DNA of 64,000 nucleotides from Psammoneis japonica (lineage: Eukaryota), in contig QPGO01000031.1 of NCBI GenBank assembly GCA_008632985.1, forward strand, positions 496,001-560,000. The letters are read 5' to 3'. Positions within the stretch are counted from its first letter, which is position 1; each line of letters opens with the position of its first letter. Below the pieces are notes generated by a model. It saw only the letters and a program-made list of their open reading frames with translations. It had not been told where the DNA came from and made no database searches. Shown one piece after another: positions 34,456-60,228 of this stretch. Made by a program: the position numbers and the translations under genes.

Positions 34456-34503
34456 TAGCGACAAAGAAGAAGTAGCAATCCAATCCAAAGATCGAGGCGA
34501 CAT

Positions 34504-35941: not shown

Positions 35942-35990
35942 ATTGTGATTATGCGAGCGTACGAGTATCACGAAAATAGCATTTTAGGGG

Positions 35991-36836: not shown

Positions 36837-37599
36837 TTGACCTTTCTCACTTTCGTGCATTGCGCTGCATTTGCAACTCATGTCAACTGCTTCTCGTCTC
36901 TTCGATTTCTTCGCTTTCAGTTGAAACCCTTTATGTGCTGTATCGCCAATCGAAATAGCGCCGGACAAGTGGATGTCGATTGCTGATGCTTTATTCAGAA
37001 TTTCGTGTGATGCTTGCGATGCATTGTGAATGAGTGGGAACTGCCACTTTGTGACACCCGATTGGTCAAATCGTTGGTTACTATGTATATACTTCATCGT
37101 TGACGAATGATGCGAAAACGTTTTTTCCGTTGTATTCTTAACGAAATACTTCATCACTTAAGGTTACTAAATCATTAATTTATTTAAGGACATGTCGGCC
37201 ACCTCAGAAATAGTGGCACGACTGACACATCTCTCTCTTTGGCGCCAAAGACAAAGACAATGTGGCAACGCACACGCACTGCACTCTACTCTCTAGAGAG
37301 AGAGCAGTGGGCACAGCAGTGCGCGGTTCTTAGACTGGCTGTGTGGGACAATTGTGTGGGAGTGTGTGCACAATTCTGCCTTTGTTTCACGGCCACACCC
37401 TCTGCGTGTTTTTCTGTGTAAGCTCTGGTGCAGATGTCGCCTTTTTCTGACGGTGTGATGATGGTTCTCACTTGCCTGTTCAGACGTGTTCTTTTGTCGA
37501 CGTGCCATTGTTCTGTGATCATTGGCAATCTCATGCAGTGGAAAATGATTTGTGCCACACTCTCTTGGCTCATTTGCTTGACGTTCTTCTCGGCATTTT

Positions 37600-38330
37600 C
37601 TGTTCTTGTGTGCAAAGTTTCTGCACAGGTCTCAGCACAAATTCCATGCATTCTGCGAGTCATTTCAGACGGACGACTCATCAAACTGCCGATTGCTCTC
37701 TCTCCACACCTCCCAAGCATCAATGACCCCCCTTCTCTCCATTGTCCATTCAAGTTTCCTGTGTTGTGTGGTGAACATTTTCCCATCATTGCTGTTTTCA
37801 GAAGTTTGAAGCAGAGACCAGAGTTCAGTGTGCATTGGCCATCCTTCCGCTTGCCGACAAGTCTGCACAAGTTTCAGCACAAGTTCCATGTGTCACAGAA
37901 ACATTTTCAAATGGCTGACCTCCCAATCTCCTGACTGCTCTCTGTCCATCCCTGCCAAGCACCAACGACTCCCCTTTTACCTGCTGTCCTTTTAAGTTCT
38001 CTGCTTTGTGTGGCGGACACCCCTTCTGTCCTTGCTGCAACCAGAAGTGTGAATTTGAGATCAACTGGGCTTGATTTGGCTCTTTGCCTGTTTGCCAATG
38101 CTTCCTGCTAAGTTCCTGTGCAAGACTCAGTGCAAGTTCTGTGTGTCATGGAAACATGTTCTGACAGAAGATCTCCCAATCTTCTGATGGCTCTCTGTCC
38201 ACACCTGCCAAGCTCCAATGACTGCCCCTTTGCTCAATGCTTTTTTAAGTTCTCTGCTCTGGACAATGAACTCCCTTTTGTTGCTGCTGCTGTCGTGAGT
38301 TTGACTTTGAGACCAACTCAGTGGTCGGTG
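37600..38330 (+). repeat. Three diverged ~245-bp tandem units
   Basis: gctctct(c/g)tcca..cct.ccaagc..caa(t/c)gac recurs near 37695, 37937 and 38189. Confidence 0.7.
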
Positions 38331-40949
38331 ATGTTTTGGTCCCTGGTTGTGAAATTTGTGGTGTTTGCTCTGTTTCAGATCCTTTCTCACTTTGGAATGT
38401 TCCAAGATGGCTTGCTTCAGTGGAATGACCAGATCCAGTCCCAAGAAAAGAGCTCTTCTGTTGCTTTGGTTTCTCAAGTGCTTTGAAGTTGACAAATCAA
38501 TTTGCTGTTGCTGTCCGTGGCACCACTCCAACTGTTCCTGGCGGGCATCATTGTTTGTTGGTGGCGCCTGTCATGGCTGATCGCAACACATTCCTGCCAC
38601 ACTGTTGGTGCACTGGGGGTGTGGGTTAGCTTGTTGCTGGAGTTGCAGGGTGGAAGTGCAGCAGCACTTTAAATGTGGATTTTTGGTTTGGTTTTGTGTG
38701 GGAGTGTGTGCATGTGTGAGGGCACAAGTGGAGCACGCAGAGTCACCACTGAGTGAGTTGACATGTGCGGTGGATTTTCCACTGGTTCAAAATCCACGTG
38801 GTCCACAAACCCTTTCAGTCAGCAAAACTGCAGCATGCTGTGGCACTTGGCGCAAAATTATGTGCGCACTTCACCGTGTCAAAAAATGGAAACCAACAAA
38901 AGCACAAAGGAAAGAGACAATCTGTTGTCTGCCCTGTGCAATGGAGGTGCTCCAGTGTTGAACTCGCTTTGCAAGATTGTTCCATGCAACATTTGTGACA
39001 AACTCATGAAGAGACTTGGATGCTGGATCTCCTCCATTGCATTCAACAAATGGCACTTGGGCCATTGTCACGACGTTGTTCGCAAGGTGAGCACAAAGAC
39101 TCACAACTGTTTTTTCCACAAATGATTCACAATTCAGTGAAAACATGGCTCCAACATGCACGTGAAAAACAACGGCATTTAAAGGTGCTCTGTTTTCAAA
39201 AAGGCGCTGGATTTTTAAGCCATTTTCAATTTTTTAAAAGGTGCTGAGCAATGAACAAAGGTGCTGACTTTTTGGGCTGTTTTTTTTTTTAAGTGCTGGG
39301 TTTTTAAAGGTGCCAAGTGCAGCACTGTGCTTTCAGGTGTGTGCAAGGGAGAAGAATGGTCAAGGCATGAACTCATGATGGAGAGTGTCTCTCTCATGAT
39401 GATGCTCACAGAGTGCCCGTTGCATGCTCTGCCATCTCCAGAGCAAAAAATTTGAGCAGCCCTGGGAATGACTTTGCTCTGGCCCTGTCTGGCTGACCAG
39501 AGCAGCTGGAGCTGGAGCAGTGGAATGCGTGCAGATGTGCACAAGTTGTCTGTTGTTGTTTGCTCACATGCCTTTGCACACTGAGCATGCACACAAATGA
39601 CAAAACCTGGCTTTTTTTGGCTGTGACGACCTGCAGCACCTGAGAGAATTTGATGTAAAAAAGCAGTTCATTTGCCAAAATCTCACATCACAACATGACT
39701 CATTGAGAACACATCACAGGGCTCTCTTTGGAAAGCAGCTTTCTTCTAAATCTGTGACATCCACTTCATTTGCAATGACAAGCAACAAAGTTCAGCAGGA
39801 TGCCGTGGGCTGTGGAGAGACAATGATGTGCAATTTAGACTTGCAGCCTCAGTGTTTTTTCTTTGTGCCCACCATCAGGTGTTTCATCATTGGCTTCTCT
39901 CAAGATGAATTTTTCATGGCAATTGTGTGTTCCCGGTGTCAAACATGTGACAAGTGACAACATGTCAAGGGTGTCCAGCAGCATCACAAATGCAAGCAAG
40001 TTGATTGAATCCAATGGGCTTTTTGCACTTGCTCCAATTGCATTGGCACAGATCACAAGCCAGCAAATGTGACCTTGGCACATTGTGTGGAGCATCTGGT
40101 GATGTCAGCACAATTGATTGCATTGTCAGGTGCAGCAGAACATGGGGGCAAACTTGTCATTTGGTGTGCATTGCATTGCTGCAAATTTGCAAAAATTTGG
40201 AATTTTGCCCCACAACATTCTCTCATTGCAGCCCATCTGCATCTGTGAGCCACCTCATCTTTTTGTTGTTCACATGTTGATTGCATGCAAGGAAGCACAT
40301 GCATGGATGACAAGACAATTTGCGCACCTTTGGCAGAATGGCCGCAGATGGACAAGAAGGGTGTGGGTGTGATGAAGAGATGCAGGTAGAGGAGCATGAT
40401 GTGCCCAACCAACATGAGCCAACTGGCTGTGCAATGTGCAGCATGCGCATGCAAGACAGTGTGTGATGCCATCTCAGCAAGTGTTTGAAGACAGCTGTGG
40501 TGACTTTCTGTTTGACAATGCACCAACAGATTCCCAATGAGTGCAGCATGACCCGTGTGCAGCAGAGTGAAAGGCACAGTTGTCCATCTGGGGCAGTGCT
40601 GCTCTCAGCTGTTGCAACAAGTGCTGATGGCAGCCAATGCATGCAGAAAAAATGGTGCAGTGAGTCCCTGGGTGCAGCTTGTTGTTGAGTTGGGGCACGA
40701 TTGTTGTCAGCATTTTTGCAATTTTGTTTGCTGCGAACACCAAAAACTCAGGACATTGATGACAATGACATCATCTCAAGCAATGGATTGGAGCACTCAA
40801 GCAGATGCCAGCAAGCCAAATGTTTTGCACTGGGTTAATTTGTCATGTTTGCATTGTTGTGCCTGCATGCCTGAAATCAGCGTGGGTGATGTTTTCATCC
40901 CCACATGGCTGCCATTGTTGCTTCTCATCTCTGTCACATGTTTTGACCC

Positions 40950-42200
40950 AACCTCATCCATTTTTTGAAGCTGCGCACATTTCCTGCATGACAGTGTTGC
41001 CAAAAAAATGCTGGAATGCTGGAGTCCAACAATGCCTCTGTGTGCTCTGCCCACAGCTGGGTGACCCCAATCATCCATGAACACTTCAGCATGGTTGTGT
41101 TCCTTTTTAACAAGGACAAGGAGGGCACTGCCGAAGGCAACCCAATGGACATTGTGGGGTGTGGGCTGGGCCTTTTTTGCTGGCCCAGTGCCAAGCACTT
41201 GATTCCCAGTGTGACCCTGACCCTTGGCATGCCAATCACTCTGAAAGTTCAGTGTCCCTCTCTGGGATTTGCTTGCAGCAGCACTTTGTGCCGCTGCCCC
41301 CCAGTGCCAATGCCGCCATGCCAGCAACTCCAAATGCATTGTCATTGTCCCGGAGCACAACTTCTGGCAACTCCAAGAGAGCTCTCATGTTTTCCCAGAA
41401 CACAACCTGGAAAATGACAAGAATCACTTTGGAGATCTTGGATTTGCAGAAACAACAGGGCTTGAGCCATGGAATGACACCAGCACACCCATCCATGCTG
41501 AGCAGCAACAAACTTTCCTGTCAAGAGTTTCTTCATGTGCTCTTGCACAGTGCACAGCCATGGACCATCACTTGTGTGTCCATCATCCCAATTTCTTTTT
41601 TGGGAAACTCAAGAATGGAGCAATGAGCAGGGCATGCTGCATGATGATGGTTGGTGTGCATGATGTGTGACATCTGACTGGCTGTCACATTTGACCATTT
41701 GGCAGGTTGACTGCTCTCTGTTGCTGTCTGACCATGCTTCCTCTGGTGTCTGTTGCACTCTTGGATGAGCTCCCTGGTTGGCTGTGGTGCAGGCCATGAG
41801 CACCAGACCTTGAGCTGAGGCTCCAGATCTGGGGACCTGAATTTGGAGCTCCAACCAGAGAGCTGCCACCCCAAAGGAAGGCAAGCAAGAGGCCTGCACT
41901 CAAGCAACAAGTGAGGCAAAGGTGAAGGTGAAGTGGGAGGGGAGCTGTGCAATGGCTCCTGGGCCACAAAGCAAAGAGCTGGGAAGGCCACAGCACCTCC
42001 ATGGAGAACAGCCAAGCAGTGTCATGCAAGCAGCACAGAGGACAAGCAAAGGAAGGCAAAGCCAGTGGGGAGCAAGGTTGGATGAGAGCTGTCAAACAAG
42101 GCAGTTGGGCTCCACCAGATGTGGAGGATGCATGCTGAGCTGCTCTCACATGCCATCTAGCTGCACCACAGCCAGGTGTTCAACTTGGGCAGTGCCAGTC
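40950..42200 (+). mobile_element. Degenerate CRE-like non-LTR retrotransposon (RT and downstream region)
   Basis: KEGTAEGNPMDIVGCGLGL (cf. EGVTQGDPL.M..YGLG), PWHANH (cf. PWYADD), SKCIVIVPEHN...FGDLGF..TTG and PSML...LSCQEF. Confidence 0.65.
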
Positions 42201-42249
42201 TCAAGGCAGGCATCATGCAAGCTGGCTGCTGGAGAAGCATGGCACACTC

Positions 42250-43300
42250 CCAGAGGCTCACAAGAAGGTGTGCCAAGCCTCCAGGCTTGGTGAGTGCTGC
42301 AGCAACAAATTGTGCAGCTCTCTTTGCAATTTGTTGCAGCAAAGCAGAAGGTGCAGCTGGGTGGCCTCCTCAGAGAGCCTCCAACACCAAGGCAGAGCAA
42401 GATGAGCAGAGGCACAGAAGGCAGAGTCAACCTCAACAAGCACCAAAGGCATGTCAGTCCACTCACCTGCTTCATCATTGAAAGGGATTGACACACAAGC
42501 TTGACCCTTTAGAGTCCCACTCTAAGTGCAATTGGCAAGACAACTGGTGCATTGTCCAAAACAGCACAAAAGCACCAGGCAGCAATCAAGCGGTGCAGTG
42601 TGGTGTCAATGGAAGAAAAGAGCCACACAAGTGTTGACAATGCATGGGGCCCTTGGCATTGACAAAAGGCTCCTACACTCAGCTTTCAATGAGCTTTGTG
42701 GGGAAGCCCATGCACTGGATTGGCACAACCAAGCAATTGCACAAAGTTGAGCTCAAGGCTCCACAACCACCCAAGCATGCACAGGGTGTCAGACAACTCC
42801 TCCTCAGAGTGTTGGTCACATGAGACCAAGCAACTGACAAGCCAAGACCAGAGGTTCTTGTCAAAGCAAGGCTCCACGAGATGGTCATGTGGCAACCACA
42901 AGTTGCAGTGAGCTCCAACTTGTGTCATGATCTTGCCATGGCACCACAATGCTTTGGAGAAGGCCCAAGCTGCTTGAGTGCTGATCACCCAGTCAAGAGC
43001 CATGGCAATGCAGAGGCACAGGAAGACGCCTGTGCTGGTGTCTTGAAAAAGGTGCTGCACATGATGTCAAAAGCTCTGGGCCATCTCTCTGCAGGCAAGC
43101 AGCAGAAGGAAATTTGATGCATTTCTCAACTGGCCAGATGACAACAACCCAACAATTGTCAGTGTCAAAACCCAAGAAGCAAAGAAGATGGCTGACAATC
43201 ATGCCATCCCATTTCATGTGGCTGAGCACCAGAGTTGGTCATGGACTCTTGTCTGAGAATCCAAGCACAGTGAAAGCTGTGATGGCATTGATGGCTTAGA
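42250..43300 (+). mobile_element. Possible second degenerate CRE-like LINE RT fragment
   Basis: SAFNEL and FLSKQGST resemble NAFNE and FLSKEGVTQGD; heavily decayed. Confidence 0.4.
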
Positions 43301-44279
43301 GAGTGCATTCCACAGTGTGTGCTGTGGCATTGTTGCACAAGGTGTTCCATGGAGTCTGTGCAACACCTTGATGCCTTGAGACAACCATCAAGCTTTCTGA
43401 TTGTAGAATGACAAGAACAATGAAGATCCAACTTGTGGTGCACTTGCTTCTTGCATTCATCCTTGACCCTCAATGATGCAATTTGCAAGCCTCCAATTGA
43501 ATTTCAGAAAATGAGCCCACCAACCTGTTCTTCTCTGAAACAATGGTCTGGAAACTCATTGACTCTGCCTTGAATTTAGAGTCAAAGAGGTTCATGTCCT
43601 TTGTGTTTTTGACAGAGCCATCACCAGGAGCGTTTGCACTGCATCGACACAGCACCATGGTCCAAGCTTTCCTGCTTGCCATTCAGCCTGGCTCAACTGC
43701 ATTGTGCCAACCTCCACATTGTCTGAATCATCCAGTTTGTTCCAAAATTCCAAAAACAATCTGGGAAAGTTAACAAGTGGGGCCATCCTTTGTGATGGAC
43801 ACACATGCCTGCCTTGGACCACACCCCGACTTAACCATGATGTGGACACGACATGCACAGAGTCATGCCTCTTTGCCAAAAACATGCAGAAGACGAATCT
43901 AACTTGCACTGCTTTGTTCTTCTCACCCTTTGTGAATGCACTCAAGCTGCAGTTCTGTCATGTGTGTCTTCATCCTTTGACAAACTGGGATCTGTCCATT
44001 CCCACGGCTTTGGAGTCTGACAAAAGAAGAGCAGATTTGTGACAGAAAATCATCTTGCCCCACTTGGTTTGCTTCTTGATTAAACGCACCCATTTTCCTT
44101 TGGCTGCTTCACAAGATTGGGTTTGTAGGGTGTTCTGCCGTCAAGACATAAATTGCACAATTTTGAAGTGGAAAACATGATTCTGCCCAATCTCAGATGT
44201 AAAACAAAGCCAGCTCTCAAATGCTGACAGTGACAAAATTTTCTGTTGTGTCTTTTCCCAGTGCAAATCCCACAGCAGC

Positions 44280-45520
44280 CACATGAATTTGAAAATTCAT
44301 GCTGCAAAATGCTCAAATCATCATCATCTCCTTTGGCCCAGAAACATTGTTGACAAATTGCAAGAGCAAAAGGTCAAGAGCACATCAATGCATCTTGAAT
44401 GTCTTGATGAGCTTGTTGAGTGCAGTTGGTCCAAATTCAGCCAAAGTGTGCTTTTGTTGGGCTTTTTTGCAAACTTGCACACATCAGCACCCGATGGAGG
44501 ACAACATGATTGCTGAAGCCCAAAGACATTCCATGCCTTCCCCTGTCAACTCTGCACATGCATGGCTTTTTGGAGTCAACATCACATGCACTTCCATGAT
44601 GCACATGATGCTGTGAAAGGAGCACAGCTTCATTTGCAAAATCTTCACAAGAGGCAAGCACTTCTGCCAGCTTTGCACATTTTTTGCACAACTTAAGTGC
44701 TGATCTTCTGCCCCTCCTTTTTCATGCTTCAGGTTTGCACCAATCAACCCCCTTTCAACCAAGACTTGCAGCAACCCCTTTGGTTTGCTGTGCCAACCTC
44801 AGAGTTTCTTCTGCTCCATCTTTTTTGTTGCTGGAGCACTTGCTTTTTCACAGCCATCCTGCAAATTCTTCCTTGCTGTGCCCTTTGGCATGGCACAGAT
44901 GGAGTTCTTGCTGGTCAAGTCATTCTCCAGCTCTTGCCAGAGTTTCTCAGCAGGAGCTCCATTTGTCATTCATGGTGTCATTCCTTTTCTCACAGTTGCT
45001 CCTCCTTTTCCATGGGGCTCAGTGTCATCCTAAAATGCCATTGATTGTGTGTCACCAGCTTGCAATCTGCAAGCATTCACATGCCATCCCATGCATTTCT
45101 CTGTCAATTTGGCATCTCTCATCATGTGTTCCCCATCCCAGGTTCATCTCATGTGCAAATGAGCTGTTCTCCATCTGCTTTGAATGGCCCATGACAGTGG
45201 CAAAAAAGAACATGTGGTCAAAATCAGGGCTCCTCATTTCTGCAATTGTGTTGACACACAGTCCACAATGTTGCAAGTCCAGCACCTTTCATTGTTTTGG
45301 CTGCACTGAAACTCACATGTGAGTTGTTGTTTGTTGTGTTGTCAAAGCTTTCTTCTTTGTGCTTCTCATCCTCTGGCATCCATTGCTGCTGCTTCATCAC
45401 AGTGGAGCACTCCTTTCCTTTTTCATTGGCTTTCTCTCAAACAAAGCATCACTGAGATCTTTGCAGCAAGCCAAATGCCAGGCATGTGAAAAAAAGAGGC
45501 TCTGGTTTGCAACCAATGCA
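44280..45520 (-). mobile_element. Degenerate IS630/Tc1-like DDE transposase
   Basis: PDFDHMFFF...GHSK...MNLGWG; LQVLVERGLI; LASCEDFANE; LTPKSH..AELTGEGMECLWA (cf. TPKYHAELAGEGIEYSW). Confidence 0.7.
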
Positions 45521-46699
45521 AACACCAACACAGCATGGCAGTTGGGCTGGTTGTCACCAAGCAGTGCCATTTTCTGCCAGCCACTTTGCAGCATGATGCT
45601 GACAACACTTGCCCTGACAACTCACACTGCTCTCACTCTCACTTCCTTCCTCTCCTTTAAGACATCCAAGGACAGCCCAATGCCAAATGGCCTTTTTTTA
45701 TAAGTTGGTTGCCATGCTCTCAATGTCCCATCCAGAGGCAACTGAGACTGACACCCAGCTGGAAAATTGACAACATCAGACAAAACATCAGTGCAATCTC
45801 ACACCACCATCTTGACAAAGGTGGTGTTCCATGATTGTGAACAGGTGAGAAATTTGGCAACAGTGTGACACAGAATGATGTCCACTTGTGCAAACCCTGC
45901 AGGACAAGCCACAAAAGGGTTTGTCATGGTGGTTGTGAGTGAGGTGTCCCTGGCAAAGCCTCACATGAAGAAAGCATGAGTGGAGACTTGCACTCTGACC
46001 CTTGTCAGCAAAAAGGAGCAACAACCCAAGAAAATGAGCAAGAAGATGTGCTTGACAATGTCTGCCAGCCTGGCTCATGGTTGGTCACATCACAAACATG
46101 GCCAACCATGCAGCTCTTGTGCTTGTTTCAACAAACACAAGAGCAAGGCAGGGCTCCCAACTTGTGGCTTGAGCAACAGGAATTTGGACAAGAAACCTTA
46201 AAAGCTTGCAACCTCCCTGGAGACTGGCCTGCTTCAGCCAGAAATTTGCAGACTCATCAATGACCCCACCCCCAATGACAAAAAATGACAAGGACAAAAA
46301 AACAAGTCATGTGCTGACAGTGAAAAGGAAAATGCAACACCCAAGAATAAAAAGAAGGACATTGACAATGGAAGAGATGGCAAGGAGGTTGAAACTGCCT
46401 CAAAGGAAAGAGCACATTTGGAGGAGAGCACTTTCGCCTCAGCTGCAGAGCACATCATTCACAAGGCACATGGCAAGACATGTCACTTGATGACAGATCT
46501 CATTGGTGGTGTGGTGGAATGTCAGACAATCAACACTGTCAAGAGTGTTGATGCTGGGCAGCACCTGCTCATGCCTGCCAAACAATGCAATTTCATGGGG
46601 TCAAAATGTGAAAATGGGGAGCTCAGAGAGGTTTGCTGCACTCCAAATGGCAGTTTTGCAGCAGGGTTGCAATGCAAAAAGAGCCAAGGACATCAGAAC

Positions 46700-48000
46700 C
46701 CTGTTCACCAGGCAAACAGCAGATGACTTGGGATGTGGGTGAGCATGAGATGCTCATCCTTGTGATGGAACAACTTCTTGAAAGCCATCTTGAGTCCACT
46801 CTGGAAAAGGGAAAATTGCCAGAGAGCAGCATGCCAAGACATTCAACAGAATGGCCCCATGTCAAAACTTGCAGGAAGCAGCAAGATGCATTTCTGAACA
46901 TGAAATTTGTGGATTGCTTGCACACTGAATGACATTGATGGAAAGACCAATGAGCCCATCTTTGATGCACTGCACTCAAAACATCTTGATTTAAGAGTTC
47001 TTGAAGAAGAAAAAACAGCAAACTGCTGGAGCTTCAACACATCATCACAGACAGTGCAACAGAGACCATGACAAGAAAAATGTTGAGGAGACTTGTTTGG
47101 GACAGATGCCAGCATGGCATCAGATTGGCTGCTCTGCCACAGCAAAAGCCAGTGGGTTGCTCAGGGAAGCATTGCGTGTGTTCACAAACTGCCTGGCAAA
47201 TGAGTCTTGTCTCCCATGGGCAGCCTGCCAAGCAATGACAATGACATTCTTGGTGCCAGAAAAAAATCTGGGCAGCCATCAGGTCTTGAACTCGTGGAGG
47301 TCTGGCACTGTGCCATGCCCAAGTCCATTCTTGCAGTTGCTGGATTTGAAGCCAAGGAAGCCTGTCGCATGGATCAGCTTTGTGCTGAGCTGGAAGCAGG
47401 TGCCCAAGAGTGAGATTCAGATGACATGGACATGCTCTGGGAGCAACACAATTGAAAACAACTGTGGTTTTCTGTTTGTTGAGACCTTCAGCAGAGTCAA
47501 TGCATTGAATGTGATCTTGATGCTGCACAATGTGAGGCACAATCTGGGACAGGTTTGCTGTCAGTTTTTTGCAAGCACTGGGTGATCCCAGTCCTCCATG
47601 GACACTTTGGCATGGCCAAGTTCCTTTTCTGTGAGAAGGTGCTGTCCAAGAAGGTGATCCACTGGGCATGGTGGCACATGGGCTGCACATGGGCCAAGCC
47701 TTCTTAAACTGGTCCAATGCTCAACACTTGAGATTTCCCAATGTGCTTGCTCCTTGCCCCTTGGCATGCCAGCAACTCTGCTGCTGTGGGATTTTTCTTT
47801 GCACTTTGCACCATTGGTTGCAAGCATGAATGCCACCCTGTTGACAACTTTGAGAATGTTTTCATTTTCCCAGAACACAACCTGGAGAACACCAAAAATC
47901 ATTTTAGATGTCTTGGAGTGGGGGGGATTTCATTGGCAAGAAGGATGTGCACAACCAGCAGATCAATGCAAATCAAAGGCACAGACCTTGGCAGTCAATG
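46700..48000 (+). mobile_element. Degenerate CRE-like non-LTR retrotransposon RT
   Basis: KASGLLREAL...LANESCLPWAACQAM, VAGFEAKEACRMDQLCAELEAG, GFLFVE...MLHNVRH, EGAVQEGDPLGMVAHG and PWHASN (cf. WYADD). Confidence 0.75.
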
Positions 48001-50244
48001 AGGTCACCAAGATCATGATTTGTCACCCACAGACCACTCCTCACACCAGTCTTCAGAAGTTCCCACAGCATGAGTGGCAATGTGTGCAGCACATCATTTG
48101 AGGATTGCACAGAAAACCCATTCCCCCCCAAGATGGAGCCCATGTTGGGGGACGTTTTACCCCCTCAACAGGTCCTGCCCCTGCACCCCTCCACTGTCAC
48201 ATGCAGAAGGGTTGTGCCTCAACTTGAGGTTTCCCATCTGTGTTGCATCATGTCAAAGCAAATCACCTGGCTTGGCTGTGTTCCCATGATGTCACCCATG
48301 AATGTCACTGCCCCAATTCTGAGACTTGTTGATGTCACACTGTGACATAATTTCACAACGTCAGATCCTCCACCCCAAAGGGATGACTTCACCATCACAA
48401 TGTCAGAATTTTTGATCTGGCCCATCTGCCTCATGTGCACGTCACACCCAAACTCTGAAGTTGGCATTTGTGCTGTCTTGCATTGTGCATTTTCCATCTT
48501 GGCTTGGCTGTTTCACCCACTCTGATGTTTTGTGCATTTCAATGCATGACAGAATCATCATGCAATGGCTGGCAATGCTGCGCTGTTTTGCTGTTTGTCA
48601 GACCATCATGTTGTGTCCATTTCTGCCAAATCCATCACCGTTGGATGCCCTTTTGTTTCTTCTGGAGACGCCCCCTGCTCTGCAACTGTTGGTCACCGCA
48701 AGCAATGCAACATGTCACCCAACAGCACCCATTGTTTTCTCTGCATCACACATGCATCCTGCTCTGCAGTCATTCTCCATCCTCTTGGTTTGCAATGTTG
48801 CATTTGAACCCGACAACAAGCTCTTGCCCATGAATGAAATTTGCAGCTGTGAGAGAGCCACGCACCATTCTTGTTGTAAAGGAAATGACAATGCAAGACA
48901 CACATGTGGCACAAACTTGCCTCTTCAATGTGAGTCTTTGTCCTCCTCTGCCTGCTTGGTTTCCCACTCTGCATCTTAAAGCAAACCTTGCAGCATCAAT
49001 CTTGATCGTTTCTCTTGTCTGTGGCATCCAGCCCATTCATTGGCCATGTCGTTCTGCTGGCCATGATGGTTTGGGGGTTCCTGTTGTTGGTGCCTTTCAT
49101 GCGGCAAGGATGACCAAGTCCACCCCAGCAGCACTCCAGTTGTTCATGTTTCATGTCCAATGTTCAGTCGAAAAGTCGGTTTGTGTGTTGGTTGCAGCTC
49201 CATCAGATGTGTCCTTGGCAGTTTTCAAAGTTTTCACGGTTGCCATTTGCAGGTGCTGGAAACGTTTGTCACTGAAGTTCTTAATTTTGATTTTGAACAA
49301 TGATGACATCCAGCTGTGGATTTGTTCAATGTGGTCATTTTGAAAAATGCAGATGTCCAGCCTTTAAAAAAGGCTTTTTTGAAACTTGTGTTTTCCTTTC
49401 TGATGAAGCTCCCTCTCGCAACAAACGTCCAATTTCCTTGTGACGTGGATGCCTTTTTTGTGCTGTGCATCACAAATGCAATGTCAGATTCTAGCTGCTG
49501 AATGGGCACAATGCTTTTGCACCACCTGCAGCATGTGCCTGCCATCAACAGCACCACTGTTGCCCCTCCCCATGCCTGGCATGTTGCCAAAGCAGTTCCT
49601 GCTTGCTCCATGGCAGAGTTTGCATCTTTGCAGCTGGCATTGCCAGAGCCCCTCCCCGTGTGCCCAATGTGGGTTGACAGTGCATTGCCGCAGCCCCTGG
49701 CTCTGTGATTTGCAACGTGCTCTGCCACAGCAGAGTTCATTTTCCATGATTTCTGATTCACCATTTTGTTGTTTTTGTGCAAGTGCATCCATCACTGTTG
49801 GTTGTCATGTCCTCTGCAGAGTTTCAGAGTTGCCACAGCAGCAAGTGAACACCAACAATCCACACGCACTGGCTTTCAGGGACAGCTGAACCCTTTTGAC
49901 AGAGATTTCAGGTGTGTGCAACATTGATGGCACTTCTTCCTTGGAGAGGTGCCACTCTCAGTCTTGCCAGGGAGGCAAGCCCATTGCTCTCTGAGGCCAT
50001 CTTGATGTTCAGAGGTTGGGGGGGGAGCCACAGGCATCCCAGGCCACGCGAACAACTTTGCACAAAGACATCACCTGGGTGCAGCTGCAGCCGGCAACCC
50101 GGGCAGTTGCTCAAAATGTTTAGAGACAAGAGCAACCTTGTCTGCCATTCATGGCCACCAGACTTTTTGAAAAGTGGCAGATTGTAGATTTAAAAACAAA
50201 AGAATGCTCTTCACCCTTGGACCACTCCACATGATGGCATTCAA

Positions 50245-50465
50245 TGTTGGCATCCACTTGAGCCACCCAGCAAGTCATTGGCATCTGCTTGAGCCACCCA
50301 GCAAGGTGTCGGCATCCTCTTGAGCCGCCTTGCATGCTGCAGTGTCCACTTGAGCTGCCCCATTTGAAGTGGTGTCAACTTGAGCCACCCGCATGATGTG
50401 GCATCACACTTGAGCTGCCTGCATGACATGGTGTCAACTCAGCCACCCTGCATGATGTGGTGTCT
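50245..50465 (+). repeat. ~30-bp minisatellite, about 7 units
   Basis: Head-to-tail cttgagcc(a/g)ccc...gg(c/t)(a/g)tc units. Confidence 0.8.
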
Positions 50466-50999
50466 TCCTGCAGAAGTGTGGACAAAGATTGAAGGAAAAC
50501 AAGAAGTTGAGAAAACAAAAAAAACAATGCATTGAATCAACGGAATCCATCAAATGCTGTGGAGTGATTCATTTGCTGAGAATGTGAGAATGAAACAACA
50601 GCACAATGACAGACGCAGTTTTTGTTCATTTTTGGACTGTCTCTCACCTCTCTTTTCACAGATGTGCTTGTCAGAGCAAAACAAATCATGTCATGCATTG
50701 GCACTGTTGTCAGGAAAGCATTTGGCAGCAAAATTGGCAATATTTGTTGATGCCATCATGGTGACAGAGAAAAATCTAATGTTGAAATGACGAGAAAGAA
50801 AGGTTTGCGACACAGGGAGGGAAATCTGACCTTGTTTCATGACGTCCCATGACGTTTCACAACAGTGCATCAGAATCTGACATTGTGGTGGTGACATCAA
50901 CAGGATCGGAAAATGCCAAGGTTGCGCTGCAGTTCCAGAGCCACGAAAACTGTTTTCTAAACCAAGGGCATCATGTTCATTGAAAGATCTGGACAGGAA

Positions 51000-52400
51000 C
51001 ACAACAAAGCATGGCCATCAAATAAAAATGTCTGGTGTGACATGGCCAAGTGGAGGGAGGTCAAGATGAGGGAGGTTTGGGGGGTGAGTCACCTGAGATG
51101 GTGCACCCCTGACATGGACACCCAACATGAGGGACTCCATTGAGAGGGAGTCCCTTGCAATGGCAAAAACACCCTCAAGCTGGGCAAAGTCTGATGAAAC
51201 CCATTTCCTGTGTGTGGCAAGCTGTTTGCAGATGTGGAAGTTTCTCCAGCATTGGCTGGCAAGATCCCAGTGGGTGCAAACACAAAAACAGCCTTGTTGT
51301 TCTCCCAAGAAAATTTGCAGGACTGTCCATCTCTCTCATCCAATGGAGTCTGTGGTGCAGAGCCACAAAACAAATGCTCTTGCATGCTCTCACATGATCA
51401 ACTTGCTGCACAGCTGCTCAAAAGCCACCTTGGCATTCCACAAGGACATGATTTGTGAAGTGAAATGAGAAGCACAGCTCTGAGGAAAGCACAAGTGCAT
51501 CATGAGGAAACCTTGAGATTGAGACTCTCAAGACTCTCCACCTGCAGATGGCCCAAGCCACAGGATGCAGTGCCAAGGCTGGCACATGGCTGTCAGCACA
51601 CCCATCCATGCTGAATGGTGCCAAACTCTCCAGCCAAGAGTTTTGCAACACACTCTGTGCTGTTTGGGTGTGCTTCACCTGATCTGCCTGGGAATTGCAA
51701 TGGATGTGGGTGCAAGTTCTCCATCCATTCAACACACCCTTCAGCTCAAGAAGCCCCCCCCCCCCCCCCCCCAGGTCATCCAGCGACATGACCAGATTCA
51801 TGACAAGCCAGCAATCTGTTGTTGGCAAAGGCAACCAAGCCTTCCCAAATGCATGCATGATGAACCTGTTGTTGACCCTTGCCACACCTCAGGAGTCCAA
51901 ATGCAAAGAGAGCCAACAACCCCCAACAGAACTTGCTGAGCATTGCTGCAAACTCAAACAAGATGGGAGATGGCAGCTGTTGAGATGTCTCAGTCTGCAG
52001 TGGGTGGGGAAGAATGGCGGATGATGCAGTCATGGATGTCAGAGTTGTTGACACAGACACGAAGTCATGCTTGTCCAAGACACCAGAACAGCTTCTGTTG
52101 GACCACAAAAAAGCAAAAGCACAGCACAAGTCTCAAGCCTTGCCTTGAACAACATCACAGGCCTGCTTGGCAAAGAGGCCAGGGGCAACTCTGCACTCAA
52201 CAGCACAGCACAGTTGGCCAACAAATGGCAAAAGCCACACTTGGAAGTGCTGGGCTTTGTTGGTGTGAGAATGAGAGCTGTGTGCAGCAACGGCAAGGGC
52301 AGCAGCCCGCCTTTGCCTGTGGGACTCACACATCCCACTGTCCTCTCAGATTGGCACCAGATGCGCTCAATGGGAAAATGGCACTGGTCCATCTCTCCAC
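51000..52400 (+). mobile_element. Degenerate CRE-like LINE 3' part (zinc knuckle and restriction-like endonuclease region)
   Basis: GTWLSAHPSMLNGAKLSSQEF; GLLGKEA...LANKWQKPHLEVLGFV..RM (cf. LA.KW.KPYSEV.G+V..RM). Confidence 0.65.
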
Positions 52401-53783
52401 AAGTGCCAGATCAATTCAAGACTGGCAGAATCCACATGTGCTGAGACTCAGCAATTGTGTCAATGTCCTGCACTTTGAGGTCAGTTTGACCAACCCTGCA
52501 GGTTGTCAAAGCCCATCATGAGAATGGGTCCAATGCCAGGTTCCATTCAAACCACCCACCCAAAATCCAACTCTGTTTGCATGGCTGCATCAACTGCACA
52601 AATTCCCTTTTCTCATGTTGAGATTGAAGCACATCAATCAGTTTTGACAAAACAGATGTGGTGCATGTAAAATCACATGTGAGCTGCACGTCATCCAGTG
52701 CGAAAAGCATGCCCCGAAGCACCGAGTGAACAAAGTGCCCTGTGGTTGCATGCACTGGGGATGAGACCAAAGAAATCTTGCAACATTGTGCCACTTTTCC
52801 AGAAGTGAGATCCACATCTGAGGAACTGCTTGATGCCCAACTGCCAATGACAAAGCACAAAAACCTGTCCCAAGTTGATTGCGGGGTAAATTCTTCAGTC
52901 CCTCAAGTCGATGAATTGGACAATGAGCCAGCTTGACCCAACTCATGCTCTGGCCACATCTGGTCACTCTGGTGTGACAAGGAAACCCTGGCAACCTGGG
53001 CTGAACCCTCCCCCCAAGGGGAAAGGGAGCTGGATGTGATGGACAACTGGTCTTCACAGATGTCGTGGAGGATCATCCCCACAAGTTCACCTCATTTCAT
53101 GCCACCACACATGATCTCAGTTGTGAGATCCACCGGATTGCATTCCAAAACAAATGTGCCCAGTGAGTGACTCACCCATTGCCATGGACTCACTCATGTC
53201 ATGGCGGCAAATGGAGCTTGACTTCTTCTTCAAAGCAGACTCCAGACTTTGCCTGTTGTGGACAACTGACATGTTGTCCCCACAGATGCAGGGTGGCCAG
53301 ATGATGGCACACCCATCATCCTTGACTTGTGTTGCAGGCCATGCAACGGCTCCATGCCCTGCTTCATGGCTGCAAACTTGGCTCCAAAACCAGGGTTTCA
53401 ACTGCAATGTGCGCTTTGAAAACCACATCATCAAGGCCATGTTTGCGCAGATGAAGAAGCCGGTGTGTGAGCGCCTTGTCAACTTGTCATTCGCATGATC
53501 CAAGTCAACAAACAAGTGCAGATCAACCTCCAAGCTGGAGGTTCTGGCGCACTGGGTGGGATTGTTTCTTGCACATCCCCGCAAAATGACTTCCAGCCAC
53601 ATTCCTTGAAGTCAGACGTGTCAATGTCTGGGTGTGTCAGGCTGAACAATCTGGCATTGTGTCTTGCCTTGAGGTGCCCACAGACATGGAAAACAGCCTC
53701 AAGATGACCCTCCCTGGGCATGGCAAGAAACAAGGCAAGCTCAGAAACCTCCATCATCAGATTGATGTGTCCAAGCTCCGCTG

Positions 53784-54230
53784 TGCAGCATGCATGCAGA
53801 CAAAAGGTCATTTTTGTCACACCCTTTGTGACATTTAAAGGCTGCAACACGTCGCCGTGATGCATTGACTCTTGTCAGCAGCTGTGTGTTGCACTCCTCC
53901 CCATGCATCACGCGTCCATGCGGCTCTTTACTGACGTGCACTGACACTGCACGGTTTTGGCGGAACAGTGTGGGCACGTGCGAAGGAACACGCAGAACTG
54001 CACAGAGTTTTGCGCGTTCGACAGTGATCAACGTTGCTGCAGGCAACTCCCACTCAGGGTTTCGAACCCCTGGCCTCCTGCCCAATGGTTGCGATGAACC
54101 ACTCCGCCATGAATTCACAGTGCAGCATGCATGCAGACAAAAGGACATTTTTGTCACGCCCTTTGTGACATTTAAAGGCTGCAACACGTCGCCGTGACAC
54201 ATTGACTCTCATCAGCAGCTGTGTGTTGCA
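53784..54230 (-). mobile_element. TRIM (miniature LTR element): 110-bp LTRs, 227-bp interior, 4-bp TSD GCTG
   Basis: TG...CA direct repeats at 53784-53893 and 54121-54230; GCTG at 53780-53783 and 54231-54234; PPT ggggaggag on the minus strand next to the left LTR. Excision restores the Copia RT frame GVLQWTAELGH. Confidence 0.9.
54045..54116 (-). ncRNA. tRNA-derived segment with Pol III A and B boxes inside the TRIM
   Basis: A box TGGCGGAGTGG (54109-54099), D-stem GCGG/TCGC, GGAGGC variable-loop-like segment, B box GGTTCGAAACC (54068-54058); anticodon arm shortened. Confidence 0.7.
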
Positions 54231-57099
54231 GCTGTCCATTGCAGGACACCTGCCTGCAACTGGCAGAACGGGACTTTGTCTGCTTCTGGCTCAGGCAATG
54301 CATCCAACTTGGGGCGGCAATCCTGTGGAAGTGGATGATGCCCAACATGGCAATGTCTGTCCAGGGTGGCATTCGTCCAGACGCGCCTTGACATTCTTGA
54401 CAGCCTGCTGGGTGCACTTGCTGGAGCTCATGTCCCATGCACAAATGCCGTTTGGCATCTGCACCTCTCGGATCTTGGCACCCAGACACATCTCAGGGTC
54501 GCCGATTGAACCAGGCTTCATCTTGAAGCAATGGCCCAACTCCTTGAGTGCCCTTGTGGCATCGCGGTGTGCCATTGGTGCATGTCTGCATGGAGCAGTG
54601 CACGTGCACAGTGTCAGAGGAACCTGTCCTTGGGCCGGACCATCTCCCCAAGCCACACATCGGGATCAGCCAAGCAAGGCTTCCACCCAAGGTGTTGCAT
54701 GCCTTCCTGCATCATGGCCAAACTCTGGGCCTGTGGTCACAGCAATCTTCTCACCATCTGCCTTGACCTCCAAATCATTCAGAGCAACCAGAGTGAAGGC
54801 AATCCTTGCACTCTTGCACGATGCGACACTTGCACATGTCAAGGTTGTGGGAGCATTGGCGGTGTGTCCACCAGCTGTGCAGCATGCCTTGTGCTCAAAG
54901 TCCTGCAGCTTTGTGTCAAAGACCAAGTGACACTTGACATGCTGGCATCCAACCAGTTCCTTGCCATCATCAATGATCTCAAATGCCTTGTCAATGATGC
55001 CCATCTCCTTGTTTGTGGCATCTTGCCTCAGACGTTTGTTGTTTGCCTTGTTGATCTTGACAGCCTCATCTCATGTCTTGGGAATGTGTGTCCTGGTTCA
55101 TCCTCAATTGACTGGGCTCCAGCACACTCAGCCAACTTGACAGGATTGGATTCCTTCAAGTCTGCAAGGTGTTCCCAAGTGGTGGTTCCATCTTTCCAAC
55201 AAACACAAAGGTGCCATCCTTTGGTCATCTCATGCATCATGGTTTGGCATCCTCTGCTGTCCTGTGGGAAGGCGTCATCCTTCTGGACTGCATGCCCATC
55301 AGTCTTGTGATCAATGATTGCTTCCAGCGGCCTTTGTTGTTGCATTGTGCAAAAATGTTCTTGGCTGTGATGTTGGCCATGAACTCTGCTTCCTGTCCAT
55401 CAGGAAATTCGACCTCATGTGTGCAAGTGTCCAGGATGGGATTGGCACTGGCTCCACCCATCAGTGTTCCATCTGAATCGAGCTTGCGCTGTTTGACTGT
55501 TCCAGTTTGTTGGGTGTCCCCATGAGGCAGCAACAGCACCTCTGAGTTTACACAGACATCAAAGGCAGCATTGGGAATGTCATCCTCATTGGGTGCACTC
55601 GCAGGAGCATCCTGGTCTTCATCATCCTCGTGCAGATCAAAGGCAGGAATCACTGCATTGGGGTCATTGATGTCTCCAACTGTCACACCTGGACCTGGCT
55701 TGGCCTCCATTGGCCCATCAAATTTCTCACACAATGCCACATGCATCTGGTGGTGCTGTTCCTCTGGGCTCAAGGGTCAACAGGATGAATGGTGGACAAC
55801 TTGTCCATTGTCTTTCAGTGTCATGGTGGGACCCACATCTTGACTCGGACCATGGTGCTGATGCCCTGGGACTTCCTTGTCCTCAGGGAATGAGGCTGCA
55901 GTGCCCCTGAACATGACCCATCACACCAAAAGTCACACCAGCCAAACTCACACATGTGCAAAATGTTGGCTGTCTGTCTGGACAGCGTGGTTTCTGGAAC
56001 CTCTCCATCTAACTTGCAAATGTCGTGGATGATGTTGGATTGGATGAGAGCTTCAAGCTCAAGACAATCATTCCAAAGACTTTTTGGGGGCTTGAGTCTT
56101 CACCATTTTTTGTCTGACACCCCGCATGAGTTCACAAACAGTGCCCTCAGCGAAGTTGGACCATGGGGTGTGGGGTTCAGTCTGCTTGATGTGGCAGTCA
56201 GCCTCGCTGGCCTTCTTGCTGAACTGACCCAATGTCCACTCCTTTGCCCCATCCATGATCATTGTGTGGGGTGCACCATTTTGCATGAAGAGCAAGGACA
56301 GAGCCTCATGAGACAATCCTTTAGATCTCAGGGGACAAGCCCATGCCCAACCATTGGACATGCCAAAGAAGACTTGTGTGCAGTTGTTGCCCCTTCTTGA
56401 TTCAGTTGAGGAGATCAAGGTGTCAGAGCACATCTCCTTTGCAATGCGCCTGTGTCGCAACTGTTGGTCGTTGGTCCAAAACCTTCACAACAGTTGGATG
56501 GAGGACCATTCGCATGGCATGCTGCATTGTGACTTTGACAGCATTGTCAGTGTCCAATGCTGACAGACCAATTCTTGGCCAACCATTCTGCATCAACGTG
56601 CAGTCCCCGCTTCATTGTCTTGAGTGAAGAGAAACTGATTGAGGCTGGCAGCGTGCAGTCATTGCATGCATGCATGATGTCTCAAAGTGGCTGATTCCCC
56701 AGATGGTCTGAGGTCTTTTGAGCTGTGGTGCATGAGAGCTTTGTGCTCATGATTTGAGTCTGAGGACACGCATCATCCCCAGTCTCAGGCATGCATCCAA
56801 GAGAGTCCATCATGGAATCCTCTCTGGCTTGGAAATTGGCAGTTTGTGGGTCCCATTTGGGGGACTTGCATGCAAGTTCTGCTGCCGTGCCATCTTGCAT
56901 GGCTGCTGCTTCACACTCTGAAGCTGTGGGTTTGGAGGTGGGAAAGCAGCTTGTGATGCCATGCAACTCCAATGGAATCAGGAGTTTGTCCCCATTTGCA
57001 CCAGTCAACATCACCGCATGTGACTTGCTGTCAGGCTTTGTCAGTGGAAATTTTGGTTGCAGATTGACCCCTGCATCATTCAGCCACAGCTGCACAGGA

Positions 57100-57990
57100 T
57101 CCTTTCTACCAGATTTGAGGTTGCCATTCTTGTCATGCCAGTTGTTCATCATCATGTCCTTCAATGACTGAAAGTTGGAGTGGCTGCACTTCTGCTTGAT
57201 GGCAGGCCACTGTGTTGGTTCCTTGGACTTGCAGCATTGTCCTGCTGGTCCTTGACATGGGCAGCAATGGCTGAGACTGTGCTGGTGAGGACCTTGACCT
57301 GCTTGGTGTTGTCCACAGCAGACGTTGTGTCCTGGGTCCCACGGGCATCTCACAGAGACTTGAGCTTCTTCTGCACCTTTGGGTTCAAGGTGCGGGATGT
57401 GCACAGCCTGGTGGACTGCCAGGATGCACAGGTGGCCCAAAGTGGGATCCGCACATGCAACAGCTCCACTGATGGTGCGCAGACTCTTGCTGGTGCCCTT
57501 TTTTGGGTTGCAACCTGTGACATCTGCTGGACAACCATGGTCAAGTGTAGTTGAAGCATGCTTGCCTGGTGTGCTCATGTCTGCATGACTGTCAATCTCA
57601 GCACAAGCTTCAGTGTGCACAGCATCCCTCGTGGTTGTTTGAGTGATGTGCAGGGCTCAAAGTGGACTGAGACACAGGGTTGGAGAGGATCAGCATTCCT
57701 TCTCCTTTCTGCCAGATTTGAGGTTGCGATTCTTGTCATGCTGGTTGTTCGTCATCGTGTCCTTCAATGACTGAAAGTTGGAGCAGCTGCACTTCTGCTT
57801 GATGGCAGGCCACTGTGTTGGTTCCTTGGACTTGCTTGCAGCATCATCCTGCTGGTCCTTGACATGGGCAGCAATGGCTGAGACTGTGCTGGTGAGCACC
57901 TTGATCTGCTTGGTCTTGTCCACAGCAGACATTGTGTCCTGGGTCCCACGGGCATCTCACAGAGACTTGAGCTTCTTCTGCGCCTTTGGG
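57100..57990. repeat. ~280-bp internal direct duplication within the Copia (57100-57383 and 57703-57990)
   Basis: Near-identical ccagatttgaggttgc.attcttgtcatgc...cacagagacttgagcttcttctgc.cctttggg in both copies. Confidence 0.9.
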
Positions 57991-60228
57991 GACATTGGCT
58001 TGCACTCCCTGTCAGAGCAGCACTTGTCCTTGACGTCTTGTTCATGAACGATGTCATCACATTGGCATTTGGCAGCCTTCAAGAAGGCAGCAATGCAAAG
58101 CTTCTTGTTTTCATTGTCTGGCTTGGACTGCTTGATGAAGTCTTTGTGCAAGACAACACACCCATCAAAGTTGCTGTGCAGCATCATGCTGGTCATGATC
58201 TGGGCTTTGATGGAGTCAAGGGGGACACATTCTTGATGCTCTCTAGAAGGTGGCGCACCTTGGAGTGTTCGTCAATTCCAGCACAGCCGTGCTCTTTGAG
58301 GCCCTCAATTGCAGAGTGCTGTTCAATGTGAACATGCACTGGGCACTCAAAGTTCCAGCTTTGGCACTCATGGTGGTGGGAAAGAAGTGCTGAGTGCTTT
58401 TCAGCCACATTGGCCATGTTGTCTGTGTTGTTTGGACCCAAGAAGTGGTTGTGCAGGTTCAGCAGGTGGGCCGTCCTGCTGTCCTGACCATGCTGAGCCT
58501 TCTTGACATGTGCCCAACATGCAGATGTTCCCGCATGATTCCGGCAACAATCTCCACACCTTGATGTCATTGGTGGTGAATGTTTTGGTGGGTTGCGGGT
58601 CAGCCCCAGCAGTGAAGTGGGGGGCACAGGCCATCATCTCAGCACGGGCATTGGCATGGTTCTTGGCATCGTCGTCCGCCTCCAGCATCACCGCCTGATT
58701 CTCTTGGACCAGCATGCAGTGACAGTGGGCAGGGTGTTGGGGTTCTCATGGGTGGTCTCCACCACATGGAGGTGGCGGTGCCCCCCGACATGCTCAAGAA
58801 GAGTGATGTCAATTGCGCGCAATGCCAGTGAGATGCACTTGCAATGACTGGCAGTGAAAGCTGCGAGATTGAGATTTGTCTCAGCCTGCAGCAACACACG
58901 GTCATCCCCAGGTTGGGTTGTGGATTTACTCCACCACCCGCTGCACCTCCTGGGCAATGCATGACCTTGCATGGGGTCTTGACCTCATGGTCATCAAGAT
59001 GATGCAGTTCCTTGATGGTGTTGATTCCCTGGTCAGCAGCAAGGGCCGCTGACGCTTCATTCGTGAAGCTCAGTCTGTGGTGTGCAGAATGCATGGCTGC
59101 AACGTTTCGGGCTGTTGTCAATGGCTTGGTGGTTTGATGATGACAAAAACTTGGTTCACACAAGTTGTGCGGTTCTCACATGAAAAGTGAGCAAGTTGCA
59201 CGAAGTTTGCATCACTTTTTCATTGTCACATTTGCTCCATCAGTTCATCTGATCAATGTGTCTGGAGATTGGATTCCAATGTTGTGTCTGCATGTCACAA
59301 TGCATGAACATCATGCAGACTGGAGTGCCAACTCTCATTGGACATGCATGATCACACACCAATGCATGCCATTGTTCCCAAAGGTCAGCTTGACCCACAG
59401 CAAGTGTGCAACACAGTTGTTGTGGATTGTGTCACGTGAACACATTCGCAATGGATGTGTGTGTGACTCACTCAGTGATTTCAAATGGCTCATGCATCTG
59501 CCTCTGAGATGACTTTGGCATGGAAATGGTGTCCCAAATCCATCAATTTGCACTCTGTGTTCGCGCATGTGCGCCATGAAAAACATCAGAACAGACGATG
59601 CTGCAGTTGTCAACAAGCACCGGAACTCGCACCAACTCTGGGAGTGTGAAACTCATCAAGCATGAATGCTTCTTGCATTTGCAGATGTTTGCACATCATC
59701 CCTGACTCATGTGGAATGTTTTGTCTTTGTTGCGGTGCATCGCAAGCACAGCACTCATTGTCACTGTCGCTGCACATGGCAACGGCTCTGACAAAGTGAA
59801 CAAATTACCCTGTGGTCGCGTGCACCGGGGACAAGACTAAAAGAAAGCTTGTGACATCATGCCACTTTTCTAGAAGTGAGATCTACATCTGAGGAACTGC
59901 TCGACGCGACGCCCAATCGCCAATGACAAAGCACAAAAACCTAACCCGAGTTGATCGCGGGGTAAATTCTTCGAGAGCGAGAGATGGCGAGCGTCGGATC
60001 AAATTCGAGCTCGTGAAAACACCGCATGCAGTGGTATCCGCGTTCATCGTTCTTCAAGTTTTGCTTGGGGTGACCTTTCGATCCGCAACACTCTCACTCG
60101 TGTTGCCCACCTTCAAGCTGGCTGTTCGTTGACTTCCTTCTCATTAATCAGAGCATCAAACTCTCTCTTTTATCCAGCAAGTGTGGTGTGACCACATCTC
60201 TCTCTCTCTTTCTAAAACTGTTTGACCC

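Follow-up and report, generated by a model that had tools for sequence, protein, structure and literature searches.

The closest described counterpart of the process reported here comes from mutation-accumulation lines of Bigelowiella natans, in which 231 of the 302 nuclear point mutations fell in two integrated viral regions and 230 of those 231 were A-to-G or T-to-C changes, all at TpA dinucleotides, at about 6e-7 per site per generation, so that new mutations arose there about 1000-fold faster than in the background (Mettrop et al., bioRxiv 10.64898/2026.01.13.699255). In the main text of that preprint the B. natans genome is described as containing 124 clusters of TpA-poor windows, TpA-poor coding sequences are rich in reverse transcriptase (RT) and DDE domains, and the authors propose a defence role together with an ADAT2-type deaminase. 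Our analysis of a 64,000-nucleotide stretch of the diatom Psammoneis japonica (assembly GCA_008632985.1, contig QPGO01000031.1, positions 496,001 to 560,000; hereafter the window, numbered from its first letter) revealed three blocks nearly devoid of TpA, the largest of which holds a degenerate Copia-type retrotransposon, and supports the view that a directional, TpA-specific A:T-to-G:C process has altered these blocks in situ, in addition to the decay of CpG.

As in the B. natans main text, the changes run from TpA to TpG or CpA, foreign or mobile DNA is affected in an otherwise ordinary genome, and the TpA-poor, CpA- and TpG-rich regions contain retroelement-type sequence. The host here is a diatom (Stramenopiles) and not a chlorarachniophyte (Rhizaria), which adds a new major lineage, and the confirmed target is a retrotransposon island, unlike the giant-virus and virophage inserts of B. 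natans. Also new are the near-saturation of the loss (observed/expected ratio, o/e, 0.05, against a Rho of 0.45 for the B. natans insert of a nucleocytoplasmic large DNA virus), the sharp domain borders, and the co-decay of CpG, the rule set by the 3' neighbour and the spill-over into unique genes; CpG, sequence context and flanking spread go unmentioned in the main text of the preprint (bioRxiv 10.64898/2026.01.13.699255). An earlier reading of the window from its letters alone (the sequence-only reading) had taken the phenomenon to be undescribed; this did not hold, as TpA hypermutation is in print for B. natans, the single description found in our literature search, which returned none for diatoms. 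A term search of the founding paper on diatom retrotransposons (PMC2806351) did not turn up hypermutation, deamination or dinucleotides, and diatom DNMT4 is reported to be related to RID, the enzyme of fungal repeat-induced point mutation (RIP), with no function assigned to it in the source consulted (PMC9998398).

Fungal RIP shares with the window the irreversible point mutation of transposons by dinucleotide-specific transitions on both strands, with a leak into unique neighbours, but its chemistry is the reverse: RIP changes C to T, mostly at CpA, and creates TpA, and the process seen here removes TpA with a gain of G:C. Decay by deamination of 5-methylcytosine (5mC) resembles the CpG-to-TpG/CpA half of the changes, including the slower loss in GC-rich contexts; it cannot remove TpA, however, and in the window TpA disappears more quickly than CpG and also outside the zone that is poor in CpG. 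ADAR editing and AID/Pol-eta hypermutation are comparable as enzyme-driven, context-biased A-to-G changes with a 5' T/U preference, directed against repeats or used for diversification.

Dinucleotide counts confirm the claim of the sequence-only reading that TpA and CpG are scarce on both strands in three blocks and that neighbouring genes use TA normally (Table 1). Low TpA coincides with mobile-element DNA (Copia confirmed), with DNA of ordinary composition adjoining it (TpA o/e 0.05–0.08 vs 0.55). A scan in 1-kb steps gave TpA o/e of 0.01–0.19, CpG o/e of 0.00–0.69 and TG and CA o/e of about 1.4–2.3 within the blocks, and TpA o/e of 0.42–0.76 with CpG o/e of about 1 in the genes between them. 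In the main block the o/e of TG (1.85) and CA (1.86) are matched, as are their counts (2665 vs 2597), so that the depletion affects both strands. When gene-level expectations were applied, the numbers of TA+CG lost and of TG+CA gained were 125 and 103 (4080-5660), 887 and 861 (6850-18950) and 1814 and 1850 (37240-59973), and this balance is what is predicted if TA and CG became TG or CA. Beyond these four, no dinucleotide is shifted by a similar factor in the blocks. The main block also shows a raised GC o/e (1.21 vs 0.99 in genes) and lowered GA (0.96 vs 1.15) and TC (0.98 vs 1.16), which may reflect the ancestral composition of the transposons.

Table 1. Features of the window discussed in the text (positions are those of the window; n, count; o/e, observed/expected; LTR, long terminal repeat; ORF, open reading frame).
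Feature	Position	Strand	Observation	Basis
Main hypermutated block	37240..59973		TpA n=78, o/e 0.053; CpG n=265, o/e 0.19	Dinucleotide counts
Second hypermutated block	6850..18950		TpA n=46, o/e 0.056; CpG o/e 0.29	
Third, short hypermutated block	4080..5660		TpA n=7, o/e 0.077; CpG o/e 0.21	
Gene region used for comparison	19400..37000		TpA n=666, o/e 0.55; CpG o/e 0.99	
Degenerate Copia-type pol (integrase, RT, RNase H)	53059..57653	-	Spread over several frames	phmmer and tBLASTn
Edge LTR (5' LTR of the minus-strand Copia)	59795..59972	-	TpA and CpG still present	
Inner LTR (3' LTR)	52725..52896	-	83.7% identical to the edge LTR; its TpA and CpG lost	
Right fringe, past the LTR and into an FG-GAP ORF (60226-62283)	59973..60600		TpA scarce, CpG normal	
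Unique flank: Gly_transporter gene and orphan ORF (35994-37157)	35001..37240			Window vs run X1 contigs
HD_3-domain host gene, spared, between two hypermutated blocks	5775..6590	+	Normal TpA	Pfam, dinucleotide counts
Diverged repeat family, copy 1 (site of an earlier 'LINE', long interspersed nuclear element, label)	41057..41442	+	Weakly similar to copy 2	
Diverged repeat family, copy 2 (site of an earlier 'LINE' label)	47578..47917	+	Weakly similar to copy 1	

A phmmer search with a read-through RT frame of the main block (54294-55070, minus strand) gave 1,270 matches at E <=1e-3, the best being a Copia-type polyprotein of 1,165 amino acids (E 1.4e-35), and tBLASTn with 19 full-length polyproteins placed pol at 54236-57653 and 53059-53778 on the minus strand. 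The five peptide strings quoted in the sequence-only reading as altered motifs were all present where it had placed them; its two Copia strings (FFIC and CICGDN) lie in this real but degenerate pol, whereas the LINE and Tc1 identities given to other strings were confirmed by neither Pfam nor Atlas. Its statement that all classes of repeat are affected accordingly stands for Copia, and no other class was confirmed.

The coding columns of this element carry the direction of change. Conserved pol columns (n=314) were those with at least 70% agreement among at least 6 intact homologues, drawn from the 19 intact polyproteins. None of the 14 conserved Tyr columns is kept: nine have become Cys (TGY), four His (CAY) and one Arg (CGC), much as the sequence-only reading had claimed in reporting His or Cys at conserved tyrosines. 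The changes at these codons are transitions in all 14 cases, with no Phe, Asn, Ser or Asp outcome. Conserved residues of other kinds were largely retained, namely Asn (7/7), His (6/6), Lys (10/12), Phe (10/13), Trp (8/9) and Gly (30/34), with Arg (9/21) as the other depleted class, eight of its columns reading Gln, Cys or His and so matching CpG decay. Adenines were changed to G at 14 of 14 TpA sites vs 5 of 102 sites outside TpA (Fisher p = 3e-14), so that other adenines are not equally altered, and T-to-C changes outside TpA numbered 8 of 109. Intact relatives are not TpA-poor either: TpA o/e was 0.52–0.79 in all 14 metagenome Copia loci related to our query protein P0221 (the Tyr-free JGI contigs described below are not among these loci), and intact Copia polyproteins contain 3–5% Tyr.

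The two LTRs of one element are identical when inserted. The pair was aligned over 172 bases and differs by three TG/CA doubles, four TA-versus-TG/CA and eight CG-versus-TG/CA differences, with one other transition and four transversions making up the remainder; TpA and CpG are retained in the edge LTR and gone from the inner one. As the LTRs were identical at insertion, these differences arose afterwards, and the loss of TpA is mutation after insertion and not native composition. Six valid self-alignment pairs of repeats within the window (37620-38066 vs 37862-38318 was left out for self-overlap) gave 1,514 aligned columns with 35 TG/CA doubles, the sign that a single palindromic TA or CG was altered on one strand in one copy and on the other strand in its partner, together with 7 TA-type and 29 CG-type differences, 50 other transitions and 88 transversions. 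The LTR pair, the contrast of Tyr with Asn, Lys and Phe columns, the balance of losses and gains, and the differences in the unique flank described below together support an in-place process specific to TpA, in line with the separate A:T-to-G:C process that the sequence-only reading had proposed.

Survival of TpA relative to genes (125 TpA in 36.2 kb of blocks vs 963 in 25.0 kb of genes, the genes standing in for the ancestral transposon composition) depended strongly on the neighbouring bases, from ATAC (0.004), ATAT (0.009), GTAC (0.017) and ATAG (0.02) through ATAA (0.05), GTAA (0.087), CTAC (0.088), CTAG (0.15) and CTAA (0.27) to TTAA (1.02), which is spared. A four-parameter additive model gave adenine rates of 2.67, 2.12, 0.93 and 0.14 for a 3' T, C, G and A, respectively (R2 0.93). 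TpA loss depends on the base 3' of the adenine, with TAT and TAC lost most strongly, then TAG, and TAA most weakly; differences in the unique flank follow this order, although too few for a test, and numbered 7/55, 4/62, 3/48 and 1/31 for a 3' C, T, G and A. Because of this rule, the change of Tyr (TAY, where Y is a pyrimidine) to Cys is commoner than that to His. CpG survival, by comparison, climbs with flanking G+C (TCGA 0.09, GCGC 0.61), which is the expectation for spontaneous 5mC deamination.

We favour, with moderate confidence, the reading that transposon-rich islands have undergone in-place TpA-to-TpG/CpA transitions close to saturation, plus CpG loss, with the TpA part due to TadA/ADAT2-like deamination. 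The islands would presumably be heterochromatic. The process acts across whole domains of chromosomal DNA where it is situated and does not depend on CpG decay, TpA becoming TpG or CpA through an A:T-to-G:C transition on either strand. By analogy with B. natans, a TadA/ADAT2-like deaminase brought to silenced chromatin may convert adenine in DNA to inosine, while the CpG part would be ordinary deamination of 5mC in methylated transposons; the elements would be permanently inactivated, with every Tyr codon and every TAA or TAG stop rewritten. A DNA adenine deaminase is our leading guess for the enzyme on the same analogy, and in the natural tRNA substrate of the TadA/ADAT2 family the A that is edited follows a U. 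A general Pfam scan of window ORFs brought up no deaminase gene.

An A in TAY and a T in RTA (R, purine) on the opposite strand are the same site and are indistinguishable in these data, and the strand-symmetric changes fit a thymine target equally. A TET/JBP-type oxidase or other modifier might mark the T in RTA of silenced DNA (for example as 5-hydroxymethyluracil, 5hmU), leading through mispairing or wrong repair to T-to-C change. Dinoflagellate DNA carries 5hmU preferentially at TpA, but the 5hmU:A pair has only a weak mutagenic effect. Deamination is the route preferred by the authors of the B. natans work, and we consider the thymine route unlikely.

The loss of TpA and that of CpG are co-located, but they can be told apart. 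CpG decay is evident from the CpG o/e of 0.19–0.29, from the Arg CGN codons (8/21 to Gln, Cys or His) and from the 29 CG-type repeat differences. Sub-blocks at 10-13 kb and 53-55 kb retain a CpG o/e of 0.4–0.6 with a TpA o/e of 0.02–0.04. The block borders are sharp at the 200-bp scale, and the HD_3 gene, with its normal TpA between two blocks, likewise points to sharp targeting; at the right border, where the outer Copia LTR terminus coincides exactly with the end of the main block, TpA scarcity extends about 0.7 kb beyond the LTR (from 59800, per 200 bp, TpA 6, 3, 1, 1 and 3 with CpG 16, 10, 12, 12 and 13), and 4000-4200 likewise holds 2 TpA and 17 CpG. These fringes and younger sub-blocks, low in TpA with CpG kept, indicate that TpA loss is the faster and further-reaching of two separate processes. 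One metagenome Copia locus (L006, 3056 bases, 40% G+C) shows the reverse, a CpG o/e of 0.31 with a normal TpA o/e of 0.68, so that the two losses are separable across taxa as well.

Error-prone repair would tie the two losses together, in that frequent T:G mismatches from 5mC deamination in methylated transposons would recruit repair, of the mismatch or the long-patch type, in which a Pol-eta-like polymerase miscopies T at WA sites (W, A or T). Pol eta has a TA preference, and its WA miscopying is known from phase 2 of antibody hypermutation. Pol eta also alters AA and produces transversions, however, whereas AA sites are intact here (Asn 7/7 and Lys 10/12 kept) and the changes at Tyr codons are transitions in 14 of 14 cases; moreover, TpA is lost where CpG is intact (59800-60600, 4000-4200). 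We regard this route as quite unlikely.

The unique flank left of the main block was compared between the window and contigs of run X1, one of three runs (X1, X2 and X3) of one study on one public sample in which the sequence was found. Of the best-supported 40 of 686 window-X1 differences, those in the flank fall in TpA (16) or CpG (4) in 20 of 20 cases (p = 5e-15), although these dinucleotides make up 19% of the flank positions. From window to X1, 15 TpA read CpA or TpG and 4 CpG read TpG or CpA, so that the differences listed touch 15 of 196 TpA bases and none of the roughly 1,810 bases that lie outside TpA and CpG. Eighteen of the differences lie inside ORFs and 11 alter the protein, three of them changing Tyr to Cys. 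A contig of X2 is identical to the window over 35001-35959, and both forms of the flank are therefore present in the sample. The process spills over into unique genes beside the blocks, and the flank differences suggest recent activity, within the limits of a best 40 of 686 differences and of contigs, which hide minor variants. The sequence-only reading had called the process 'repeat-targeted' in the sense of RIP; with unique flanking genes altered, targeting of a chromatin domain fits at least as well. Many block bins are now at single-copy depth, which also bears on repeat-sensing, though copies would diverge after mutation.

Retrotransposition offers another route, in which transposon transcripts were hyperedited from A to I and the changes fixed by reverse transcription before insertion. 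It would suit a sole confirmed element that is a retrotransposon, as well as the 5' U preference of ADAR, which is also cited in the B. natans preprint (bioRxiv 10.64898/2026.01.13.699255). Yet ADAR acts on RNA and on one strand, whereas both strands are altered equally here (TG 2665 vs CA 2597), the LTRs diverged after insertion, and unique flanking genes and intergenic DNA are altered, which makes RNA editing very improbable.

Logan contigs of X1 have a word depth of about 50–65. In the main block the eight pieces listed span 10.1 kb of 39831-52899 and depart from the window at 37 letters and through 15 gaps; X2 gave 6 matching contigs and X3 none. As the X1 contigs agree with the window, the TpA-free sequence is present in accurate reads, and the sequence-only reading's demand that reads show the substitutions is borne out to that extent, by contigs only and from the same sample. 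When the RT was compared with 1.84 billion representative proteins, three of the best 150 matches (P0072, P0127 and P0211) proved to be free of Tyr and to abound in Cys and His, and one further protein of this kind (P0256) was found among 116 relatives of P0072. These Copia fragments, which originate from Logan, JGI/IMG (four contigs) and ENA, read ALCGLK or ALHGLK where intact relatives have ALYGLK; on their sequences they would lend partial independent support, and they may or may not come from the same species. An artefact that modified DNA caused in sequencing, base calling or assembly, which could be entertained for a sequence known from one sample of one study with no library type on record, is thereby rendered highly improbable, given the X1 pieces at their depth and letter agreement, the Tyr-free fragments in three sources, and changes that follow reading frames and the logic of the LTRs.

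The least probable explanation is that the elements were always TpA-free, or were foreign DNA biased on arrival, as the composition alone would allow: a working pol is impossible without Tyr (0/14 kept, against 3–5% Tyr in intact homologues), the edge LTR retains TpA, the relatives are TpA-normal, and the bias is common to several unrelated sequences in three blocks. Fungal RIP was rejected as the opposite chemistry, since it would raise TpA by C:G-to-T:A change and TpA is about 10-fold down with TG and CA up, and GC-biased gene conversion was rejected because it would be neither TpA-specific nor CpG-removing.

Several points weigh against our preferred reading of in-place deamination. Gene regions had to serve as the ancestral composition in the context analysis, Copia is the only class of element confirmed in the blocks, and the hypermutation signature was seen in 0 of the 14 related metagenome loci, and hence is not general to such elements. 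X1 may be the assembly's own or polishing data, in which case it is no independent confirmation. The flank result of 20/20 derives from the best-supported 40 of 686 differences, and these differences are undirected for want of an outgroup (no homologues of the orphan ORF 35994-37157 were found to serve as one); read in reverse, they would be RIP-like CpA-to-TpA changes. A more far-reaching version, in which a chromatin-guided, TAY-specific DNA adenine deaminase would be an old defence arm common to diatoms and chlorarachniophytes, possibly ancestral to the stramenopile-alveolate-rhizarian (SAR) group, active now, independent of CpG methylation, and spreading into neighbouring genes where it would create allelic differences, is put forward tentatively, and we think it rather doubtful as a whole.

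Pfam searches found no transposon family among 124 ORFs of at least 85 amino acids in the main block, no transposon domain among 78 ORFs of the other blocks and fringes (which gave a clear HD_3 match and weak DUF6824 matches only), and no family in any of the read-through frames 39902-42903(+), 52901-55902(-), 46401-48802(+) and 43801-45302(-). The blank result reflects sequences that are too degraded; Copia pol was missed by Pfam in the read-through frames and found by phmmer. With the TAA and TAG stops gone, the long ORFs of the blocks are in part spurious. For the two diverged repeat copies (Table 1) an RT identity found no Pfam match, and an Atlas search with the ORF carrying 'WHASN' gave no usable match. 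Rfam gave 0 matches over the window and ARAGORN 0 tRNAs.

Inside the Copia element, 53677-54343 has a summed contig depth of about 66,600 vs about 55 elsewhere. Two 111-bp direct repeats (53783-53893 and 54120-54230, 94.6% identical) stand around an insert of about 226 bp that shows a tRNA-like T-arm by eye, with no ARAGORN or Rfam call there; the stretch may represent a small element of very high copy number or a sequence common to other organisms in the run. Summed depths of 330–3,400 vs about 55, with many joints and loose ends, mark 37002-39002 at the left edge and 48341-51008 in the middle of the main block as high-copy repeat families.

Where the second block begins, 6719-7316 (-) holds two overlapping ORFs in different frames with weak DUF6824 matches (E 1e-4 and 1.8e-5, short of the Pfam cut-off), which looks, from these matches, like a frameshifted copy of a host-family gene within the hypermutated zone. 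The DUF6824 family is diatom-rich. In the gene region between the blocks, an alpha/beta-hydrolase gene (33529-34455) had its best named matches in the diatoms Seminavis robusta (45% identity), Stephanopyxis turris and Pseudo-nitzschia pungens, with no match above 47% identity. These matches, with which the DUF6824 matches are consistent, indicate a diatom that has no near relative in the collection searched, and not B. natans; an Atlas search with the adaptin was uninformative as to taxon. In the same gene region, 27168-30463 (+) holds a large NB-ARC and TPR (STAND-type NTPase) gene in two ORFs that looks by its domains like an immune receptor.

This extreme diatom case indicates that TpA hypermutation is no quirk of one species, and it extends the known range of the process to a group of dominant importance for marine primary production, some of whose members are genetically tractable models. 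The context rule (TAY, then TAG, with TAA weakest) is one that any candidate enzyme must reproduce. Islands of this kind defeat Pfam and repeat annotation, so that transposon content is underestimated in such genomes, and the spill-over implies a mutational cost to genes adjoining transposon islands. A natural DNA adenine deaminase, if true, would be of interest for genome-defence biology and for base-editing work, and a chromatin-guided deaminase, should that reading prove true, would be a natural adenine 'base editor' acting in a double-strand context.

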